A stretch of 64,000 bases of DNA from a virus. Lineage: Duplodnaviria > Heunggongvirae > Uroviricota > Caudoviricetes. The translations under genes and the position numbers were made by a program. The stretch is from IMG/VR virus record IMGVR_UViG_3300045988_155182; one strand, written 5' to 3'. The first letter of the stretch is position 1, and the number at the start of each line of letters is the position of its first letter. Positions 7,701 to 37,185 of the stretch are shown here, in pieces. The notes beneath the pieces were generated by a model. That model did no database searches. It was not told the DNA's origin and saw nothing but the letters and a program-made list of their open reading frames with translations.

Positions 7701-9181
7701 CAGCATCAGGAGACACATTAGGTTCATGGAACGGTTTGCGACCTATTACAATTAATAATACCAGCGGTTCTGTGTCCATTCGTAATGGACTCAATGTTAC
7801 TGGCGGCATCAATGGTAGTTTGAACGGTAATGCTGCAACTGCAACAAAACTGCAAACAGCACGCACAATAGGCGGAGTGTCATTCGATGGCTCCGCCAAT
7901 ATCAACCTGCCGGGTGTAAACATTGCTGGTAACCAGAACACTACCGGTAATGCAGCGACAGCGACCAAGTTGCAGACAGCATGTACTATCAACGGCGTCT
8001 CGTTTGATGGTTCTAAAGATATTGAACTTAACCCACGGTCTATAGGCACGATCAACTCCACAACAATGTCATTCAGCGGTGGTGCTGGTTGGTTCAAATT
8101 AGCAACGGTAACCATGCCACAGGCGAGTTCTGTTGTTTCAATTACGTTGATTGGTGGCTCGGGATTTAACGTGGGGTCACCTCAACAGGCAGGTATATCT
8201 GAACTTGTTTTGCGTGCAGGTAATGGTAATCCGAAGGGGATTACTGGTGCTTTATGGCAGCGCACATCGACAGGGTTTACAAATTTTGCCTGGGTCAATA
8301 CATCTGGTGATACTTACGATATTTACGTTGCAATCGGAAATTATGCGTGGCGTGTAAATATTCAATGGGATTATACCAGTAATGCCAGCGTGACGATTCA
8401 TACGTCACCAGCATATTCTGCTAATAAGCCGGAAGGGTTAACGGACGGTACAGTTTATTCACTCTATACGCCATCAGAGCAGTTTTATCCGCCTGGCGCA
8501 CCAATCCCGTGGCCATCAGATACCGTTCCGTCTGGTTATGCCCTGATGCAGGGGCAGACTTTTGACAAATCTGCCTACCCGAAACTTGCAGCCGCTTATC
8601 CGTCAGGCGTGATCCCTGATATGCGTGGCTGGACGATTAAGGGCAAACCCGCCAGTGGTCGTGCCGTATTGTCTCAGGAACAGGACGGCATTAAATCGCA
8701 CACCCACAGCGCCAGCGCATCCAGTACGGATTTGGGGACGAAAACCACATCGTCGTTTGATTACGGAACCAAATCCACGAATAACACCGGGGCGCATACC
8801 CATAGTATTAGCGGGACTGCAAATAGTGCAGGTGGGCACCAACACCATAGTTCTGGACCATATGCGAATTCTAATGATGGTGATCTCTTTCCTAACGGTT
8901 ATACCCAGGTTTCAGCCACAAACAAACCAGTTGTACCACGGCAAGGTGGCCAAGGTATGGCCCGTTTATCAGGGAAAACATCATCAGATGGAGCACATAC
9001 CCACTCGTTATCCGGTAGTGCCGCAAGCGCAGGTGCTCACGCACACACTGTTGGTATTGGTGCTCATACGCACTCCGTTGCGATTGGTTCACATGGACAC
9101 ACCATCACCGTTAACGCTGCTGGTAACGCGGAAAACACCGTCAAAAACATCGCATTTAACTATATTGTGAGGCTTGCATGA
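4730..9181 (+). CDS. stf: Side tail fibre protein (lambda Stf-like)
   Basis: 1483-aa ORF with RBS-like context. Ala/Ser-rich SETNA-type low-complexity N-terminal region, internally duplicated domains, and a C-terminus with the Stf/T4 gp37-type His boxes ([52 protein letters not shown]). Confidence 0.9.
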
Positions 9182-9978
9182 TTACGCTCATTCTTTCTGC
9201 ACCAGTAACAGAAATGGCTGAAGCATTTAAGCGGGTATTTGCAAACGCAGATAATGTGAATATTGTCGGAAAGCCATTTGAAACAATCAGAGAATTTGAC
9301 TGCATGGTAAGTGCGGCAAATAGTTTCGGCCTGATGGATGGCGGCGTTGATGCCGCCATTACCGCATTCTTCGGTACTCAGTTACAGTCCCGCGTTCAGA
9401 ATCATATTCTTCGTGAATATCTAGGCGAGCAGCCTGTAGGTTCTGCATTTGTTATTGAAACGGGGCATAATCATCACCCCTGGCTGGTACATGCGCCAAC
9501 AATGCGTGTTCCGCTGACAATTGACGGAACAGACTCTGTATATAACGCAACCTGGGCCGCTTTACTTGCCATCTTTCAGCACAATAAAAACGCAACGACA
9601 GACAGGAAAATAAAGACGGTGGTATTCCCTGCAATGGGGGCCGGATGTGGTCAGGTTCCGTTTGAAAGCGTTGCCCGGCAGATGAAGCAGGCGTGGGATA
9701 ACTTTAATAAAAAAACAGAAGCAATTAACTGGGAATATGCACAATCTCGCCAGTCGGCAGTATTTAGCACATATGCATACTGTCCAGGTAATTCTGTTTG
9801 CCGTTATGCGGATACTAAATATATTGGCTGTGGCGATTCCCGGACGTATTGCTCACGTTCAGGGCAGATCTGTATTAACCCTGAACATCAGGCTGATGAT
9901 GTACTGATACAACATCAGGCTAATAACCGGTTTCGCCCTGGTTCGCATATACACCGGATTAATCCGGAAAATACCTGA
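9178..9978 (+). CDS. Macrodomain (ADP-ribose binding/processing) protein; C-terminal tail looks like a degraded Stf 3' fragment
   Basis: ATGA overlap with the stf stop. Macro signature [19 protein letters not shown] plus [14 protein letters not shown]; the last ~14 codons ([13 protein letters not shown]) resemble the Stf His-box end. Confidence 0.65.
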
Positions 9979-10088: not shown

Positions 10089-10670
10089 ATGGACTTCACA
10101 ATGAGTGAACAACCACGGACCATAAAAATTTATAATCTGTTGGCCGGAACCAATGAATTTATTGGTGAAGGTGATGCATATATTCCACCTCATACGGGGC
10201 TGCCAGCTTATTCTACGGATATAGCGCCACCGGATGTACCTGCTGGCTTCGTGGCCGTATTCAACAGCGAAAATAAATCATGGAGTCTCGTTGAAGACCA
10301 CAGGGGTAAAACGGTCTATGACGTGGAATCAGGGGACGCGTTGTTTATTTCTGAACTTGGGCCATTACCGGAAAATGTCACCTGGTTATCACCGGATGGG
10401 GAATATCAGAAGTGGGACGGCACATCCTGGGAGAAGGATGAGGAAACAGAAAAATTGTTTCAGGTACGGGAAGCGGAAGAAACAAAAAAAAGTCTGATGC
10501 AGGTAGCCAGCGAGCACATTGCGCCACTTCAGGATGCTGTAGATTTGGAGATTGCAACGGAGGAAGAAGCATCGTTGCTGACTGCATGGAAGAAGTATAG
10601 AGTTTTATTGAACCGCATTGACACATCAACGGCACCGGATATTGACTGGCCAACAATACCAGCAGAGTAA
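10089..10670 (+). CDS. tfa: Tail fibre assembly protein (lambda Tfa-like)
   Basis: AGAGG RBS 6 nt upstream of the ATG. Sequence [35 protein letters not shown]...[21 protein letters not shown] matches lambda Tfa as I recall it. Confidence 0.9.
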
Positions 10671-12086: not shown

Positions 12087-12222
12087 ACCACAAACCACCA
12101 GCGTGTTGTTCTGCGATGGGGCTGAGCCTATCTATATCAGCAATAATGATGTAATGACTGAAGAAACCGAACGCCAAATCCTTTTTCACAATACGATGGG
12201 AGAGAGGGTTTGTGGTTGGTGA
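12007..12222 (+). CDS. o-spanin (Rz1-like outer-membrane lipoprotein), embedded in and extending beyond Rz
   Basis: Signal peptide with lipobox ISGC; classic Rz/Rz1 overlapping architecture. Confidence 0.55.
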   Translation: MRRAVKYVRKMLLPFIVSCMISGCVIKPQTTSVLFCDGAEPIYISNNDVMTEETERQILFHNTMGERVCGW

Positions 12223-12229
12223 TGTCGAA

Positions 12230-12251
12230 GTTCCCCTCAAATGAGGGGAAC
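12230..12251. terminator. Bidirectional hairpin terminator between the convergent lysis and TA genes
   Basis: gttcccctc-aaat-gaggggaac perfect stem-loop between two convergent stops. Confidence 0.55.
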
Positions 12252-12254
12252 ACA

Positions 12255-12776
12255 TTATTCTTCGAACAATTTTTCGATAGATTTTGTAGGATAGAACAAA
12301 GAACGCTCGTTGTTACCAACCAGCTGGATAAAGCCTAAACTTTTATAAAACGCCTTGGCTTTGTCATTTAACGCCTCAACGAAAAGTCCATGAATGCCTA
12401 CAGCAAGAGATGCATTGTACACAACGCGCATTGCATGTGTTACAAGCATTGAGCCAAATCCTTGACCTTGAAGGGACTTGTCCAAAGCCAGCCTACCCAA
12501 AGTAACACTTGGAACATTCCGATAAGGAACCTTCTTTTGTTTGCTTCTTGAAGGTAAGGACTCCTTTTCAAAACAACTACCTGACAAAGTGTAATATCCT
12601 AACACTTTTGGCCTTTCTTCTTGAGTGCAAAGCACATAAGCACGAAGAATTTTTCCCTCATGCTGCCTTTTTAAGTGGTTGGCTAAAAAGGCGTTTAGTG
12701 ACTCTTCGCCGCAATCAAAACCGTTTAGATCATAATCTTTCTCTCCAGAGAAAATCTCTATCGTTGTATTGCTCAC
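12255..12776 (-). CDS. GNAT-family acetyltransferase toxin (TacT/AtaT-like)
   Basis: Acetyl-CoA binding motif QGQGFGSMLV; ~170 aa; immediately downstream of a DUF1778-type small ORF with a 7-nt gap. Confidence 0.75.
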   Translation of the reverse strand: MSNTTIEIFSGEKDYDLNGFDCGEESLNAFLANHLKRQHEGKILRAYVLCTQEERPKVLGYYTLSGSCFEKESLPSRSKQKKVPYRNVPSVTLGRLALDKSLQGQGFGSMLVTHAMRVVYNASLAVGIHGLFVEALNDKAKAFYKSLGFIQLVGNNERSLFYPTKSIEKLFEE

Positions 12777-12783
12777 GAGTAAA

Positions 12784-13053
12784 CTACTCCATGCTTTTCA
12801 GACGATCAGCAGCTCGTTTCAGCTTGTCGTTCGGTGCCGGAGGATTGCTTATAGCGTCCATAACCAGATTCCAGGATTCTTCATTCAGAACTAGTCTACG
12901 GTGTTGCTCTATAACTTTCACGGCACGTTCAGATGCACTGCTAACCATAAACTGAGTAATGCTCTGGTTAGACATTGCGGCAGCTTCCTCGATGATGCTT
13001 TTATCGTCATCGGTTAATCTCAAATCGATGCGCTGCTTTTTTAGTGCTGACAT
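12784..13053 (-). CDS. DUF1778-type (RHH) antitoxin partner of the GNAT toxin
   Basis: AGGAGG RBS 5 nt upstream of the ATG at 13053; ~89 aa; operon order antitoxin then toxin. Confidence 0.65.
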   Translation of the reverse strand: MSALKKQRIDLRLTDDDKSIIEEAAAMSNQSITQFMVSSASERAVKVIEQHRRLVLNEESWNLVMDAISNPPAPNDKLKRAADRLKSME

Positions 13054-13371
13054 GTATTCCTCCTGATGGCCGTGATGTAGGAAGGCCATCAATCTCCTCT
13101 GTTCAAACTGAGTTTTCGACTCAAAAATTACTTTAAAAGGCTATAGCCCATTACGTGTGCATTATCAAATTGTGTACGGCATAACACCGTACTTGTAATA
13201 TAGAGGTCATTGTTACTTTTTTCAACAGACAAATACAAGCTATGATTGCCAATTGTTAATCACAACCTACCATTTAACCTTTACACCGCAGCCGTAGGCA
13301 TTTAGGCTATATCACATATAAGAAAACAAGTTGTTTCAGACGATAATTATATACGCAAAGGGAACTCTCCA

Positions 13372-14040
13372 ATGACCAAGATCTTTGTGGTTGGCGGCAC
13401 AAAGGGCGGGCCTGGCAAATCCACCGTTGCCCAGCAAATTGCCGTTTGCCTGAAAGTCAAAAAGAAGAAGAAGGTTTATATTACCGATATAGATATTCAG
13501 CGCACGACAACGAGCTGGTGTGAAGACCGTCGACAGAACGAAGACCTTGAGCTGATTCCTTTTGCATACGTTCAGGATGACATCATTAAGCACCTAAAAT
13601 CGCTTCAGGGTAGAGCTGAGTTTGTAGTGGTAGATGCTGGTGGCTTCGACTCCGAAATTCAGCGACAAGCGATGCTGATGGCCGACGTTATCATTATCCC
13701 GCTTCGTCCTAAGCGTCGTGATTTGAAATCTCTGCGTGATATCGATCCTATTATCGACAATGTTCGTAATGTAAACGATAAAGTGAAGGTCCGCGCGGTC
13801 ATGAACCAGTGTCCGGCTTTGCCATCACAAGTGTCTCGCATTCTGGCGGCTAAAGAGATTGTTGAGACGTTTGGCATCGAGTCTGCGCCAGTCAATCTAT
13901 ATAACCGCAACGTCTATGATGATGCGGAAGAGTCTGGTCGTTCTATCTTTGAAATGACCGGTAGCGAGCGCGACAAAAAGGCGGAAGCCGAGTTTGAAGA
14001 ATTTGTAGATTATCTGTTGAGTCTGGAGGAAAAAGAATAA
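13372..14040 (+). CDS. parA: ParA-family partition ATPase
   Basis: Deviant Walker A GGTKGGPGKST; ~220 aa; followed by a small RHH-like partner. Confidence 0.85.
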   Translation: MTKIFVVGGTKGGPGKSTVAQQIAVCLKVKKKKKVYITDIDIQRTTTSWCEDRRQNEDLELIPFAYVQDDIIKHLKSLQGRAEFVVVDAGGFDSEIQRQAMLMADVIIIPLRPKRRDLKSLRDIDPIIDNVRNVNDKVKVRAVMNQCPALPSQVSRILAAKEIVETFGIESAPVNLYNRNVYDDAEESGRSIFEMTGSERDKKAEAEFEEFVDYLLSLEEKE

Positions 14041-14399
14041 TGTCCATGAAAATGGGTGACCTAGCAAAGCGCAAAGAGCCTGATGCACCGGCTAAGAACA
14101 CAACTCCTTTGCGCCAACCAGTCAGACCACAGGGACGCCCGACTCGTGGCAAAGAGAAAATTAAAAGCCGCACAATGTCACTGGAGGACGAATACTTCGA
14201 ACTGCTGGAGATGATGAAGTTCATCCCTCGCTTCGAGAAGTTCACTCGTTCTGACGTGATTCGTGCTGCTATTTTCCATCTTGCGGAGAAGACACCGCAG
14301 GAAATCGAGGACATCGTGAAACTTAACGAGGCGATCACCGCTGCCGATGTCACGATGCGTACCGATGAAATCAAACGCGAGTTGATGAAGAAAGGTTAA
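14040..14399 (+). CDS. Small basic DNA-binding partition protein (ParG/RHH-like centromere binder)
   Basis: Start overlaps the parA stop; basic unstructured N-terminus then RHH-like SLEDEYFELLEMMKF...VIRAAIFHL. Confidence 0.5.
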   Translation: MSMKMGDLAKRKEPDAPAKNTTPLRQPVRPQGRPTRGKEKIKSRTMSLEDEYFELLEMMKFIPRFEKFTRSDVIRAAIFHLAEKTPQEIEDIVKLNEAITAADVTMRTDEIKRELMKKG

Positions 14400-14443
14400 T
14401 TTTATTGAGGTGCTGCTTGGCACCTCTTTCTATAGGTTCCCTA

Positions 14444-15163
14444 ATGCTCTACAAATATATTGGAAGTGAAGATTCGCAAAAAGTGTTACGTAACCTCAAA
14501 CGGTTTGTAGAGGACGGCACTATCTCTGCTAGCGCACCTTCTTCATTCAACGACCCATCAGAGTTCAAAGTTTCGATAACGATGGGAGGTACAGAAGTGG
14601 AGCGCCGGAAACACTTTGAAGACAATGGATGTAAGGATTTTTCCTTTGAAGACTGGGATGCTGTAGCTCCTGAAGCTGCAAAATCGTTGGCTGTGGATTT
14701 GCGGAAAGAATCATTAGGGGCTTTTGGTGTGGTGTGCTTGTCACCAAACGAAGATAACATCTTGATGTGGTCACATTACTCAGTGTCGCATAAAGGTTTC
14801 TGCATAGGCTTTGATGATGATTTTGTTACCTCTATTGAGGGGTATCACAGCTTTGATAATGTGAAATATATACCTTCTGTTCCCGTGTTCGATGAAGTTA
14901 CAGATGAGTTTAAGGTACTTTTTGATAAGCTCTTTTTCTACAAGCACGAATGCTGGAAATATGAGGAAGAACAAAGGGTTATTACTAAAAAAATAGGCGC
15001 TCAGGCATTTGATAAGAAATATATTAGAGAGATCATTCTTGGACATAACGTTTCTCCTGAAGTAGAAGAATATGCCCGGACACAGCTAGACACGAGCATC
15101 GAGGTTTACAAAATGAGTACACCTGATGATGGTTATCTTCTTGTCAAAGAAAAGCTGAAGTAG
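14444..15163 (+). CDS. DUF2971-like protein of unknown function (candidate defence/accessory gene)
   Basis: N-terminal LYKYIGSED...L...FNDPSEF signature typical of DUF2971-type proteins (from memory). Visibly A+T-rich coding compared with neighbours. Start could be TTG 14405 or ATG 14444. Confidence 0.55.
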   Translation: MLYKYIGSEDSQKVLRNLKRFVEDGTISASAPSSFNDPSEFKVSITMGGTEVERRKHFEDNGCKDFSFEDWDAVAPEAAKSLAVDLRKESLGAFGVVCLSPNEDNILMWSHYSVSHKGFCIGFDDDFVTSIEGYHSFDNVKYIPSVPVFDEVTDEFKVLFDKLFFYKHECWKYEEEQRVITKKIGAQAFDKKYIREIILGHNVSPEVEEYARTQLDTSIEVYKMSTPDDGYLLVKEKLK

Positions 15164-15229
15164 CTCCAGACTTTCCTCAAATGATTATGTTGGGCGCTTT
15201 TCTTATTGAACTGGTTAGTGAGGCTAATA

Positions 15230-16402
15230 ATGGATTTGTTCTCAACCAAAATAGCAAAAAACAAGCTGCACGAATCTTTTAAACAGATTTATCAAGATAA
15301 TACATATGCTCCAGTAAGAGAAGTGATACAGTCGTGGGGGCGTGGGTTACTGGAGCGTAGCGGTGAGCAGACTAAATTCGTTAAAGAGTTTCAGACAACC
15401 TTCAATTCCGCCTTATGGGAATTGTATCTGAACGAAATGTTTATTCGTCTCGATTATTCTGTCGACTACACAAAAGACAGTCCCGATTTCTGTGTTACTA
15501 CACCGTCAGGCTACCAGTTTAACGTCGAAGCTGTGATATCAGATCGGCCACATAATCCACCTGCAGGTGTTCTTTTTAGCGAATCAAAATTCAAACATCA
15601 ATCAACGCTAAAATTAATCGGAAAAATCAAAGACAAACATGATCTTTTTACAGGAGTTAATGGCAAAAAATTCCCGTACTCTACGATGTCTCATGTAGTT
15701 AATAAGCCGTTTGTTCTGGCGCTTGCACCCTTTGACTCCGATTTATCATTGTCTCAAAATAACACAATCATCAATCGAGTGTTGTTTGGCATTGAGGAAC
15801 CTACCACCAGAAATTTGGTGACTGGCAGCCAAACTAAAGTTACCTCAATCAAAAAGAATGAAGACGTTGAAATTCCATTAGGTATATTTACTAACGACTC
15901 ATATAAAGAAATAAGTGCGGTTATTTTCTCCACCACCGGCACTTTTGGAAAAGCCGTGGTTCAAAGCGGTATCGGTAGATATGTAAGGTCAACACGATAT
16001 CGAGCCATTGATGTGAATGATTTTATCGCCAATGAAGGGATGAAAAACGAGGGAAAGCACACACAAAGGATAGGACCTGATCATTTCATCACTACATATC
16101 GGCATTTTTTAAATAACGAAGTCACTGGTGCGGATATTGTAGTTTGTCATTCCACTGCTCATGAAGAGACGCACTTTGACGGCCTTCATATTTACTACAA
16201 TCCTTTTGCGACAGTGCCACTGGACAGAAATATTTTCTTCCCCCCAGAGATAACTCATAATTTTTACGATATGGAAAAAGAACAGTCTGTTCAGAATCAT
16301 CCTGATGGAGCGCTGGTATCTAGACAGGTTTTTGAACCAACTAGAGCACATTTTAGGTATATCATGAAACATTGGTTTCCAGGCTTTCTAAAAGATGTTT
16401 AA
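15230..16402 (+). CDS. Hypothetical 390-aa protein, partner of the DUF2971-like gene
   Basis: GAGG RBS 6 nt upstream of the ATG; co-oriented 66 nt after the DUF2971-like gene; followed by a strong terminator; no motif I can assign. Confidence 0.6.
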   Translation: MDLFSTKIAKNKLHESFKQIYQDNTYAPVREVIQSWGRGLLERSGEQTKFVKEFQTTFNSALWELYLNEMFIRLDYSVDYTKDSPDFCVTTPSGYQFNVEAVISDRPHNPPAGVLFSESKFKHQSTLKLIGKIKDKHDLFTGVNGKKFPYSTMSHVVNKPFVLALAPFDSDLSLSQNNTIINRVLFGIEEPTTRNLVTGSQTKVTSIKKNEDVEIPLGIFTNDSYKEISAVIFSTTGTFGKAVVQSGIGRYVRSTRYRAIDVNDFIANEGMKNEGKHTQRIGPDHFITTYRHFLNNEVTGADIVVCHSTAHEETHFDGLHIYYNPFATVPLDRNIFFPPEITHNFYDMEKEQSVQNHPDGALVSRQVFEPTRAHFRYIMKHWFPGFLKDV

Positions 16403-24122: not shown

Positions 24123-24197
24123 GATGGTGTAGCTCAGCGGTAGAGCAGTTGGCTGTTAACCAACTGGTCGGTGGTTCGAATCCACCCACCATCGCCA
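24123..24197 (+). tRNA. tRNA-Asn (anticodon GTT)
   Basis: Cloverleaf folded by hand: acceptor gatggtg/caccatc, D-arm gctc-agcggtag-gagc, anticodon loop ctGTTaa, T-arm ggtgg-ttcgaat-ccacc, 3' CCA encoded. Confidence 0.85.
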
Positions 24198-24199
24198 AT

Positions 24200-24275
24200 G
24201 CCGGTTTAGCTCAGTTGGTAGAGCGCCTGCCTTGTAAGCAGGATGTCAGCGGTTCGAGTCCGTTAACCGGCACCA
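24200..24275 (+). tRNA. tRNA-Thr (anticodon TGT)
   Basis: Acceptor gccggtt/aaccggc, anticodon stem cctgc/gcagg with loop ctTGTaa, T-loop ttcgagt, CCA encoded; 2 nt after tRNA-Asn. Confidence 0.85.
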
Positions 24276-24499
24276 ATACAACGATAAGATCATTACGGTT
24301 AATCGTCGTTCATGTGCACAATGACTGGTCGAAAGGTAGTGATCTTACCGTTGTGGTGGATTCGCAGACTGATGCGATAGCTTTCTTGGATGTTAGGGAA
24401 ATGCGGCCGCAAATCTTCCCTTTCGCGAGCGGTGATCGTCCGTAGTCCTAATTGGCTGCACCGTATGCCGGAGATTCAGTACCGGCCACCACAACGGCC

Positions 24500-24586
24500 G
24501 GAGAGTAGGGAGCATGGTGCTCAAGCGGTCTTGAAAACCGTCCCATTGCGCAAGCGATGATGGTTCGATTCCATTACTCTCCGCCA
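24500..24586 (+). tRNA. tRNA-Ser (anticodon TGA), class II with long variable arm
   Basis: Acceptor ggagagt/actctcc, anticodon stem gcggt/accgt with loop cttGAaa read as UGA, long variable arm, T-arm gatgg-ttcgatt-ccatt, CCA encoded. Confidence 0.7.
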
Positions 24587-24764: not shown

Positions 24765-25673
24765 TTAATGATTGCCTAGATATGATTTTAGTTCTTCTTT
24801 AATGATTAGTGAGTATTCTAAAATATCACTTAGTAAAAATTTTGCTCTGTTAAAATACCCACCAAAAGAACCTAAAATTTCAGATGGTCTTTCTAAGAGC
24901 ATCACAATATCATCTTCTTGCACTTTAGTAATGTAACTTCTAACAGCTCTTTCTCCAATAACTCTTTTCTTACCGTTTATTTCAGATTCATCTAAAACCT
25001 TATTTATAAATTTTTCTGTATCATTGAATCGTCCACTATTGTGTACTATTGTATGTCTTAGTAGTTCAATTAGCTTGATGTTAAAGCGATAGTTTTTGCC
25101 AATCTTGTTGTTTGTTTCTATCTCTTTGAAGCCAGGTATTTTATTTCTGAAAATTTTAGTTATTTTTTTCGATGGGTTACTTTTTGCTTTTAATAATCTG
25201 TAATAAACTTCCCTTTTCCCAATTTCATCATCTTCAACCTTACCAAAATCACTTGAGGACCATAAATCATTTCGAACACATACAGTATAGACATATATTG
25301 CCTCAATATAGTCTTCCAGTAACTCATAGGCTTCAGTAATAACCCACTGATATTGTTTATTTTTCAAAGTATTACACAATCTTATCTTTTCTTCTAAATC
25401 AATGGCGCTGTTACCTATCTCTAATGTTGAACCTGTATATGGGTTTGAACATAAATGGCGAGCTAACGTTGTGCCACACTTAATCTTAATAGTTTCATTA
25501 ATATTAATAATAGTATCTGGATTCTGTGCATACTCCACTTCTTTAAGAAGACGTTTTATATTTTTCTTTGTTGTATCATTTATCTGATTTAAATAGTCAA
25601 AAAGTAAAGATATTTCTTCTCTAAATTCGTTGTATTTATTTTCAATCAAAGAATCAGACAACTTACCAATCAT
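24765..25673 (-). CDS. A+T-rich hypothetical protein with HEPN-type Rx4H motif (candidate abortive-infection RNase)
   Basis: 302-aa ORF with A+T-rich codon usage unlike its neighbours; motif LLRHTIVHNSG (R-x4-H) in the C-terminal half; isolated between terminator and tRNAs. Confidence 0.5.
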   Translation of the reverse strand: MIGKLSDSLIENKYNEFREEISLLFDYLNQINDTTKKNIKRLLKEVEYAQNPDTIININETIKIKCGTTLARHLCSNPYTGSTLEIGNSAIDLEEKIRLCNTLKNKQYQWVITEAYELLEDYIEAIYVYTVCVRNDLWSSSDFGKVEDDEIGKREVYYRLLKAKSNPSKKITKIFRNKIPGFKEIETNNKIGKNYRFNIKLIELLRHTIVHNSGRFNDTEKFINKVLDESEINGKKRVIGERAVRSYITKVQEDDIVMLLERPSEILGSFGGYFNRAKFLLSDILEYSLIIKEELKSYLGNH

Positions 25674-35516: not shown

Positions 35517-35791
35517 ATAAAGAATTATGGCGCTTGTTGAGGAAGTCACTCCTCTTACGCACTTTGTTTTGCCATGCCGGCAGTTAGCTTCTGCCTTTGA
35601 CTATTCATGCGGCAACCCCGCATTTCGCCACAATGGGCAATTCACTTTTATGGAATAAACTGGCCGTTGTGTCGATTTAATTAGCATGGCCTTACCATGC
35701 TAATTTATTCAACTTGTACAATCCTACAAATCTATCCACTCAGGCTTACACCGTCTTCGTTATTGTAGAAATGAGGATCATCAGCGTTGAA

Positions 35792-36007
35792 TCAGCTTAG
35801 AGCAACGACATTTGCTGCTGCTGGGCCTTTAGCACCATTCTCGATAGAGAATTCGACCTGCTGGCCTTCTTCCAAAGTGCGGAAATTATTACTCTGAATT
35901 GCCGAAAAATGTACAAAAACATCTTTACTGCCATCAGCAGGAGAAATAAAGCCAAAGCCTTTATCAGAGTTAAACCATTTTACTAAACCAGTCATTTTAT
36001 TAGACAT
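35792..36007 (-). CDS. cspA: Cold-shock protein (CspA family)
   Basis: [38 protein letters not shown]... closely matches E. coli CspA from memory; AAGG RBS; the track start at 36103 is an upstream in-frame extension. Confidence 0.9.
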
Positions 36008-36311
36008 AGATATTACCTTCTTAATTTTGTGAGCCACATAGTGCGGCGAGAATTTGATCTGTATAGATTGGGACTTACTTAGGCACTTAAGGAGGAGACT
36101 CACGAAGAAGGGAAATCAGAAGATAACACTGAACTGAGACTGCTTTACTAAAACTGCTTACATAAGGTCTGTCTTGCAAACCAACGATGCTATTAACGCA
36201 TACCCCTTCTTTTCATGCAACCTTTATTTTTCAAAGATAACTAATTTTTGTCACCATTGGTTTAGTAAACGTTAACGAACCAGACGATGCCAGACACCTT
36301 TACAGAGAACA

Positions 36312-36336: not shown

Positions 36337-36900
36337 TTATGCGCATTTCGCAATATCTTTGCGGCGTTTAATCAGTTTCTCCGCAATTTGCTCTATTTCG
36401 TTGAAATCTTTCGAGACGCTGTTTCGAAGCGCCAGATTCCATTTACTCAAAGTTCGGGCATTTTGGACAATTTGATCGCCCTCTTTAAGTCGTCCGTTAT
36501 TCATGAGCCATTCAGCCACATCAGCCCAATCCCAGAGAGGAGACTGGCCTTTTATGCGTTGTACAGGGCAAGGGAAGTCGCCGCTTCCGCGCTTACCGTC
36601 TTTGAGCAACGCCACTGCCTGGCGAGACAGGTCTGTCAGTTCCGCGATATCACTTAAGCCCACAAGAGCCGAGTCGACGGATTCAACAATTGCACCGATA
36701 CCGGCTGATTCAATATTGTCGACCGCAGATGCGATAGCTGCATCAAGTGATTGTGCTTCGCGGTCAAATTCTACATAGACGGAGTTTCCATATGCGCAAA
36801 TTAGCGCATCGTCACAGCCGTTTTGGTACAGCGCGTCTTCCAGTCCTTCCGTCTCATACGATACGCCTGAGAGCGTCAGAGTGAAGTTATAAAGCGCCAT
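36337..36900 (-). CDS. Hypothetical protein (second gene of a two-gene minus-strand cassette)
   Basis: AGGA RBS before the ATG at 36900 (MALYNFTLTL...); 187 aa. Confidence 0.5.
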   Translation of the reverse strand: MALYNFTLTLSGVSYETEGLEDALYQNGCDDALICAYGNSVYVEFDREAQSLDAAIASAVDNIESAGIGAIVESVDSALVGLSDIAELTDLSRQAVALLKDGKRGSGDFPCPVQRIKGQSPLWDWADVAEWLMNNGRLKEGDQIVQNARTLSKWNLALRNSVSKDFNEIEQIAEKLIKRRKDIAKCA

Positions 36901-36960
36901 AGTTTTCCTTTGAAGATAGTTGGACAGTTTCTGCAAAAGGCGGCTAATGCCGCCTTGAAA

Positions 36961-37185
36961 TCATTTACAACGATCAACCATTCGTTTGATCTGTTTGGCA
37001 TGGTTTTCGGGATTACCCGGAGTCGACCATACGCTCATTTGGTGAGTTTTGTGTTCACCTTCTGGATTACCGCATCGCAGTCTGCAAAAACAATGTGCAG
37101 CACCACCAGCAGCTACCCAGATCCAGCCTTTACTTAATGCATAGTCAATGGCTGCTTGAATATGCTTATTCGGATGTTGCTTCAT
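36961..37185 (-). CDS. Hypothetical Cys/His-rich small protein (first gene of the cassette)
   Basis: 74 aa with H..C.C..RCGNP...H; 24 nt upstream of the partner. Confidence 0.4.
   Translation of the reverse strand: MKQHPNKHIQAAIDYALSKGWIWVAAGGAAHCFCRLRCGNPEGEHKTHQMSVWSTPGNPENHAKQIKRMVDRCK

Follow-up and report, generated by a model that had tools for sequence, protein, structure and literature searches.

A small two-gene locus beside a partition operon raises three questions: whether its products form a working toxin–antitoxin (TA) pair, to which family they belong, and what they do for the element that carries them. The locus is located at 12255–13053 of a 64,000-nt stretch of viral DNA (Caudoviricetes; IMG/VR record IMGVR_UViG_3300045988_155182), which is referred to below as the window. 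An earlier note on this DNA had proposed a TacAT-like module of a GNAT toxin and a DUF1778 antitoxin. Judging from the sequence comparisons described below, the pair is almost certainly a member of the AtaRT/KacAT clade (clade A of Bikmetov et al. 2022, PMC9177977). It probably constitutes a functional type II TA operon, carried as accessory cargo of an SSU5-like phage-plasmid, that stabilizes this plasmid-prophage post-segregationally. The feature is real and was correctly recognized; it is also ordinary and already known.

Gene pair and its start sites

The two genes lie on the same strand, with the antitoxin gene first:

12784–13053, minus strand: DUF1778/TacA1-type ribbon–helix–helix (RHH) antitoxin gene, ATG start, 89 amino acid residues
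12255–12776, minus strand: GNAT toxin gene, GTG start, 173 residues; predicted by homology to encode an aminoacyl-tRNA N-acetyltransferase of the AtaT/KacT clade

The toxin matched the Pfam models PF13508, PF00583 and PF13673 above their cut-offs, and the sequence LQGQGFGSMLV was found at its residues 102–112. This agrees with the GNAT acetyltransferase that had been proposed from the motif QGQGFGSMLV. The acetyl-CoA motif Q/R-x-x-G-x-G/A corresponds to QGQGFG at residues 103–108, with G108 of the toxin aligned with G108 of AtaT. The antitoxin open reading frame (ORF) matched PF08681 (TacA1/DUF1778) with E=5.7e-26. Its stop codon is at 12784–12786 and the toxin starts at 12776, which leaves a gap of 7 nt between the genes. 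A single promoter-like site upstream, found by a promoter scan, would serve both of them, and the pair is arranged as an operon in the manner of the GNAT/DUF1778 superfamily. The claim of a small RHH-type ORF preceding the toxin therefore held. A search of both proteins against NCBIfam was uninformative, as it returned only sub-threshold generic GNAT, RimI, MobA and RelB matches.

The upper end of the module had been placed at 13092. We replaced this position with the ATG at 13053, which is the true antitoxin start because a Shine-Dalgarno sequence AGGAGG (13059–13064) lies five bases before it, the 89-residue protein aligns with KacA and AtaR from residue 1, and RefSeq gives a 270-bp antitoxin coding sequence with the same start (WP_001351987.1) on a copy that is identical over 12200–13371. 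The position 13092 is accordingly read as the end of a mechanical ORF extended to a TTG codon.

Assignment to the AtaRT/KacAT clade

When the toxin was compared with all PDB sequences, the best matches were Escherichia coli AtaT (6GTS/6AJM, E=1.4e-79) and Klebsiella pneumoniae KacT (5ZGN, E=3.9e-75). The next-best GNAT toxins, TacT-type chains among them, scored 1e-21 to 1e-11; for the TacT-type chains 5fvj, 7ak8 and 6g96 the values ranged from 1e-11 to 8e-20. The toxin and chromosomal AtaT are 69% identical over 173 residues with 0 gaps. The antitoxin is 80% identical to KacA (E=6.6e-42) and 76% identical to AtaR, the latter without gaps, and TacA-type antitoxins matched it at 1e-4 to 1e-13. 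With such E values against solved structures for both proteins, a chance match of the gene pair can be considered excluded. The label "TacAT-like" is thus correct at the level of the superfamily and fails for closer kinship: TacT and TacA are not the closest relatives, and the pair falls outside TacAT sensu stricto (Salmonella, clade D).

The conservation of functional residues points in the same direction. We checked 18 AtaT residues taken from PMC7595197, 17 of which had been mutated and assayed there, and one, A26, had been placed in the aminoacyl pocket by a structural model. Fourteen of the 18 are identical in the toxin, including the catalytic Y144, the acetyl-CoA-binding G108, Y85, R95, K79/K81/K82 of helix alpha3, and L27 and L136 of the pocket. 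Two replacements are conservative (R71K, K77R), and the other two are considered below. In the antitoxin, the DNA-reading residues R8, D10 and R12 of KacA are present and invariant across the relatives compared, as are present the neutralizing residues M65 and I68 of KacA (PMC6698736). Furthermore, in a variant of the module with ~90% nucleotide identity the toxin is still 94% and the antitoxin 98% identical, which indicates purifying selection.

AtaR–AtaT of enterohaemorrhagic E. coli (PDB 6GTS, 6AJM, 6AJN) is a chromosomal system located between panM and livJ. It shares with the window pair the gene order, the sizes (88–89 and 173–175 residues), and the operator half-sites. It differs in that the window copy is on a phage-plasmid beside parA and has a leader of ~120 nt compared to ~28 nt for ataRT, apart from the replacements R40E and A26S. 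KacA–KacT of K. pneumoniae (PDB 5ZGN, 5XUN) is similarly close, with an operator core equal to that of the crystallized 27-mer, and the copy of the module in Escherichia phage Cyrano is annotated as "KacT". However, positions 70 and 77 of the window antitoxin are N and K as in AtaR, whereas KacA has Q and R, and the replicon is different. TacA–TacT, TacAT2 and TacAT3 of Salmonella, ItaRT, AtaRT2 and GmvAT combine a GNAT toxin acting on aminoacyl-tRNA with a DUF1778 antitoxin and so belong to the same superfamily, but they are related only distantly (E=1e-11 to 1e-20, compared to 1e-79 for AtaT). These distant systems belong to clades B and D, with Gly-specific or Ile-biased substrates, and the GmvAT toxin is listed in clade D; AtaT and KacT belong to the basal, broad-specificity clade A (PMC9177977).

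N-acetylation of aminoacyl-tRNA has been demonstrated for AtaT and KacT, and the tested clade A members acetylate Gly and hydrophobic aminoacyl-tRNAs and affect elongation (PMC9177977). Growth arrest and its neutralization by the cognate antitoxin have been demonstrated for AtaT, KacT and KacT1–4 (PMC7595197, PMC9431474). The placement in the AtaRT/KacAT clade therefore predicts a broader substrate range than that of the Gly-specific TacT. By analogy, the toxin is predicted to modify Gly-tRNA as well as the tRNAs charged with Trp, Tyr, Phe or Met.

Promoter and operator of the module

The control region and the end of the module contain the following elements:

13197–13225, minus strand: sigma-70-like promoter, TTGAAA and TATATT separated by 17 nt, 10/12 matches (promoter scan)
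13174–13192: operator palindrome GTACGG-N7-CCGTAC, directly downstream of the -10 hexamer and across the predicted transcription start
13054–13173, minus strand: 5′ leader of ~120 nt from the operator to the antitoxin start, without significant structure
12230–12251: G+C-rich terminator-like hairpin GTTCCCCTCAAATGAGGGGAAC, found by a terminator scan inside the variable cassette

The operator reads GTACGG-TGTTATG-CCGTAC from 13192 to 13174. The palindrome occurs once in the 64-kb window, against a chance expectation of 0.02 matches. Its half-sites are those of the crystallized KacAT operator 27-mer AAATGTACGGTTATTAACCGTACATGA (PMC6698736) and those upstream of chromosomal ataR TGTACGGTGACATACCGTACA. 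Together with R8, D10 and R12 of the antitoxin, this operator at the predicted transcription start has the features that characterize clade A.

Comparison of the copies suggests that the half-sites are constrained and the spacer is free. In the 90%-identical variant, the promoter hexamers and both half-sites are unchanged and the 7-nt spacer differs. Both hexamers are also kept in pYY76-1-1 and Cyrano, and GTACGG-N7-CCGTAC was found upstream of every diverged copy that we fetched. Other plasmid-borne copies have leaders of 110–230 nt, compared to ~28 nt in chromosomal ataRT. Folding of the 153-nt 5′ leader (z-score -1.17) did not point to a structured RNA element, and an Rfam search of the whole window gave no match in or near the module. 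The hairpin at 12230–12251 separates the toxin stop codon from the convergent lysis operon, whose last gene, Rz1, ends at 12222; relatives without the module do not have this hairpin.

Carrier element and cargo slot

The carrier is an SSU5-like phage-plasmid. Its module region is 99.6% identical to that of Escherichia phage Cyrano (= pLF82) and of "phage CMS-2020a", and the match to SSU5 itself begins only at the parA promoter and runs onward from there. The genes are ordered holin, endolysin and Rz/Rz1, followed by the toxin and antitoxin genes on the opposite strand, and then by the partition genes:

13372–14040, plus strand: small ParA ATPase (NCBIfam ParA_partition, E=1.9e-33; Pfam MipZ/AAA_31)
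14040–14399, plus strand: 119-residue protein in the ParB position, second gene of the divergent partition operon

The parA gene diverges from the antitoxin gene, with 318 bp between parA and the antitoxin start. The position of the module beside the partition locus, from which a plasmid-addiction role had been argued, is thus as claimed. The 119-residue protein had no support in Pfam or the PDB, including for the label "RelE/ParE putative toxin" that it has in Cyrano, so that no second toxin is assumed here. A role as centromere-binding partner to the small ParA is more likely. A search of 13090–14500 for a centromere or flanking recombination repeats gave only short two-copy matches and no centromere repeats.

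In a multiple alignment of five relatives, the cassette that contains the module extended from ~12223 to 13265 and had no flanking repeats. The alignment places the module in a variable slot that has the spanin genes on one side and parA on the other. In SSU5, pSTEC409 and pS2 this slot is occupied by two unrelated plus-strand ORFs, and in a Klebsiella-type element by a gene for a helix-hairpin-helix protein.

To the right of parAB, the gene at 14405–15163 (plus strand) encodes a DUF2971 protein that matches the candidate defense system PDC-S31 in PADLOC (E=4e-38). It is followed by a 398-residue ORF at 15206–16402 (plus strand) that matches the PADLOC defense protein PD-T7-5 (E=2e-139). This ORF, an additional insertion flanked by the DUF2971 gene and a 249-residue ORF, is not found at the corresponding position in Cyrano. 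Relatives carry a gene for a GIY-YIG protein or a large P-loop NTPase in place of DUF2971. Because the contents of this right-hand slot also vary, parAB is flanked by two variable cargo slots.

Distribution and age of the module in its slot

Of 5426 complete E. coli genomes, 152 contain the full module, in all cases on plasmids and never on a chromosome. These plasmids are roughly 95–190 kb in size, mostly ~105–125 kb. Another ~100 E. coli genomes match only the conserved stretch upstream of parA. Of the 257 matching places in E. coli, every one is on a plasmid. PLSDB contains 143 near-full nucleotide copies of the module. At the protein level, a toxin of the AtaT clade is encoded on 583 plasmids: on ~144 at ≥90% identity, which represents this phage-plasmid lineage, and on ~423, many of them conjugative F-type plasmids, at 60–80% identity.

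Diverged copies with unchanged orientation also fill this slot in three SSU5-like elements, from Enterobacter hormaechei, Klebsiella variicola and K. pneumoniae. Their toxins are 63%, 61% and 51% identical to that of the window, respectively, their antitoxins 87%, 87% and 66%, and their ParA proteins 88%, 82% and 74%. Because these copies hold the same slot and orientation across genera, the residence of the module is long-standing. TA systems have also been noted in the shell genome of the SSU5 supergroup (Pfeifer et al., PMC7969092). From this comparison, the module is best described as a long-standing but dispensable occupant of the spanin–parA slot.

Proposed mechanism and main role

By homology to AtaRT and KacAT, the GNAT toxin dimer would use acetyl-CoA to acetylate the α-amino group of charged tRNAs, and translation would stall. 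The C-terminal half of the antitoxin would wrap around the toxin and block its activity. In a T-A2-A2-T hexamer like those expected from 5ZGN and 6AJM/6GTS, the N-terminal RHH dimers would bind GTACGG-N7-CCGTAC over the transcription start and repress the operon, and an excess of toxin would relieve this repression. Such conditional cooperativity has been demonstrated only for KacAT (PMC6698736). The genomic context suggests that cells losing the low-copy plasmid-prophage would be killed or arrested in growth, and the module would in this way complement the adjacent ParAB. Within the superfamily, GmvAT stabilizes a large Shigella plasmid. A functional parallel is phd-doc of the phage-plasmid P1, which passages in PMC6698736 and PMC7969092 describe as a type II TA system on a plasmid-prophage, with a role in addiction and autoregulation by conditional cooperativity. 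The analogy is functional only, as the proteins and the chemistry are unrelated (Doc, a Fic kinase, acts on EF-Tu).

The Cyrano copy, which is 99.4% identical, provides expression data. In the Cyrano paper, the label of CYRAN_26 is "KacT acetyltransferase-type toxin" and that of CYRAN_27 "putative antitoxin"; both are listed among the morons and were expressed 35× and 60×, respectively, over the local prophage background in lysogeny; the copy number of Cyrano was ~5.5 per cell (PMC9928086). The module is thus found on a low-copy extrachromosomal replicon and, for the Cyrano copy, is expressed in the carrier state, as would be expected of an addiction module. On balance, we favor addiction, i.e., post-segregational stabilization, as the main role because the module has a phage-plasmid-only location and a conserved place beside parAB, occurs at low copy number, and is expressed in lysogeny.

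Several points weigh against this conclusion. The two non-conservative replacements relative to AtaT, R40E (helix alpha1) and A26S (located in the aminoacyl pocket), may give the toxin a different substrate range or potency. About 100 SSU5-like elements of E. coli, and SSU5 itself, lack the module and have other genes in the slot, which means that it is dispensable for maintenance. A possible second two-gene module on the element, similar to PDC-M06 and annotated as HicAB in Cyrano, could make stabilization by the first one redundant. Chromosomal ataRT with the same operator is present in 30% of E. coli genomes and could blunt addiction. Finally, the literature that could be searched yielded no experiment with this variant.

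An alternative main role is anti-phage defense or competition between elements. Shut-off of the host by an infecting phage would stop antitoxin synthesis, the freed toxin would arrest translation, and the aborted infection would protect the resident phage-plasmid. Some type II TA systems are established abortive-infection devices, and the surroundings are compatible with such a role: the PDC-S31-like DUF2971 gene and the PD-T7-5 gene lie on the far side of parAB, both flanks of which are variable cargo slots, and SSU5-group phage-plasmids have been reported to carry defense systems, PD-T7-5 among them (bioRxiv 10.1101/2025.09.12.675607). However, the PADLOC v2 models matched neither protein of the pair (0 families), a limited full-text literature search for an anti-phage role of GNAT/DUF1778 pairs turned up nothing that appears to concern one, and close homologues occur on chromosomes and conjugative plasmids without defense neighbors. 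We therefore consider defense quite improbable as the main role, and the abortive-infection alternative raised in the earlier note gained no support.

Even less probable is that the host is the main beneficiary, with the module acting as a stress or persistence switch (in drug tolerance or macrophage survival, for instance) and its plasmid location being incidental. According to work cited in a passage of PMC9431474, KacT halts growth and induces antibiotic tolerance, and LF82, the strain in which the near-identical Cyrano copy is expressed, is macrophage-adapted; the Cyrano paper, however, reports no phenotype for this copy (PMC9928086). In E. coli, moreover, the lineage is confined to phage-plasmids, with 0 chromosomal places, and it keeps its slot beside parAB across genera. 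This pattern fits selection on the element. That the GNAT protein is an ordinary, non-toxic resistance or metabolic acetyltransferase and the small ORF an unrelated regulator is scarcely credible: the Pfam and NCBIfam matches are to broad GNAT models only, with RimI-type models far under their cut-offs, but the toxin is identical to AtaT at 69% of positions over its full ungapped length, keeps the toxin-specific tRNA-contact residues, and is accompanied by a cognate DUF1778 partner 7 nt upstream and a family-specific operator.

tRNA genes and other features of the window

The window contains genes for tRNA-Asn, tRNA-Thr and tRNA-Ser at 24123–24586 (plus strand). The earlier note had suggested that, with these genes and a HEPN ORF, the element may carry more than one tRNA-directed activity. 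The tRNA cluster of the relative pPEC178_2 (positions 24995–25552 of the fetched locus), whose TA module is identical, contains between the Asn and Thr genes an additional tRNA-Tyr gene that is absent from the window, and Tyr-tRNA is a substrate of AtaT in vivo (PMC9177977). We rejected a link between the toxin and the tRNA genes, as Asn, Thr and Ser do not correspond to the clade A substrates Gly, Trp, Tyr, Phe and Met, and the presence of tRNA-Tyr is inconsistent. The only HEPN candidate is an A+T-rich ORF of 302 residues at 24765–25673 (minus strand), beside the tRNA cluster, with the motif RHTIVH (Rx4H). Searches of Pfam, NCBIfam, PADLOC and the PDB returned no match for it, and an AlphaFold model built from the single sequence (pLDDT 33) was unusable. 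Its family is phrog_35492 (unknown function), and in Cyrano this place is taken by a different gene. With Asn, Thr and Ser outside the clade A range and a HEPN candidate defined by its Rx4H motif, a second tRNA-directed activity is unsupported.

The two genes at 36337–37185 (minus strand) match both parts of PDC-M06 in PADLOC, A with 74 residues (E=1e-19) and B with 199 residues (E=2e-32). The Cyrano genes at the equivalent position are annotated as HicA/HicB, with the correspondence based on position and not on alignment, and a Pfam search of the window proteins did not support HicAB.

A macro-domain protein is encoded at 9178–9978 (plus strand; PF01661, E=5e-19), with weak DarG-like and ADP-ribose-binding matches. 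Its gene lies between the tail-fiber and tail-fiber assembly genes, starts inside the tail-fiber stop codon, and is frameshifted in the pYY76-1-1 annotation. The protein may serve as an anti-ADP-ribosylation counter-defense. Two RNA families were also matched: the cspA thermoregulator (Rfam RF01766, 188 bits) at 35767–36185 (minus strand), upstream of a gene for a cold-shock-domain protein, and the IS009 small RNA family (Rfam RF02111, 190 bits) at 10432–10630 (plus strand), within the tail-fiber assembly gene.

Shared operator with chromosomal ataRT and significance

A distant nucleotide search detected a locus of the AtaRT clade in 1853 of the 5426 E. coli genomes, with 1625 loci on chromosomes (annotated ataRT) and 299 on plasmids. 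Two loci were present in 71 genomes, compared to ~90 expected under independence; this comparison is crude, without correction for phylogeny, and 71 is an upper bound for chromosome and plasmid pairs. The sequence GTACGG-N7-CCGTAC is kept in chromosomal ataRT (E. coli O157, positions 2290–2330 of the fetched locus), in the F-plasmid copies, and in the SSU5-like copies from other genera. Because the operator half-sites and the RHH residues that read them are common to both, cross-repression, and possibly anti-addiction, between the phage-plasmid module and the host ataRT is plausible.

A wider picture, which we regard as rather unlikely, would make the GNAT/DUF1778 pair an ancient, co-diverging resident of the spanin–parA slot across the SSU5 supergroup. 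Co-resident modules would cross-repress and perhaps cross-neutralize each other, and either chromosomal ataRT would act as an anti-addiction locus or the module would double as an abortive-infection device in the defense-rich flanks of parAB.

The pair itself adds little that is new. Its family is structurally and biochemically characterized, and exactly this pair is annotated in RefSeq (WP_000072677.1 and WP_001351987.1, the antitoxin under the name "TacA family antitoxin") and in the Cyrano/pLF82 paper. The context is of modest value, as the module recurs in one defined cargo slot beside parAB of SSU5-like phage-plasmids from several genera. Its residence in this slot, together with an operator shared with the common ataRT, makes cross-talk between phage-plasmid and host, or anti-addiction, directly testable. 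If the wider picture were true, chromosomal ataRT would decide which hosts can shed the phage-plasmid.

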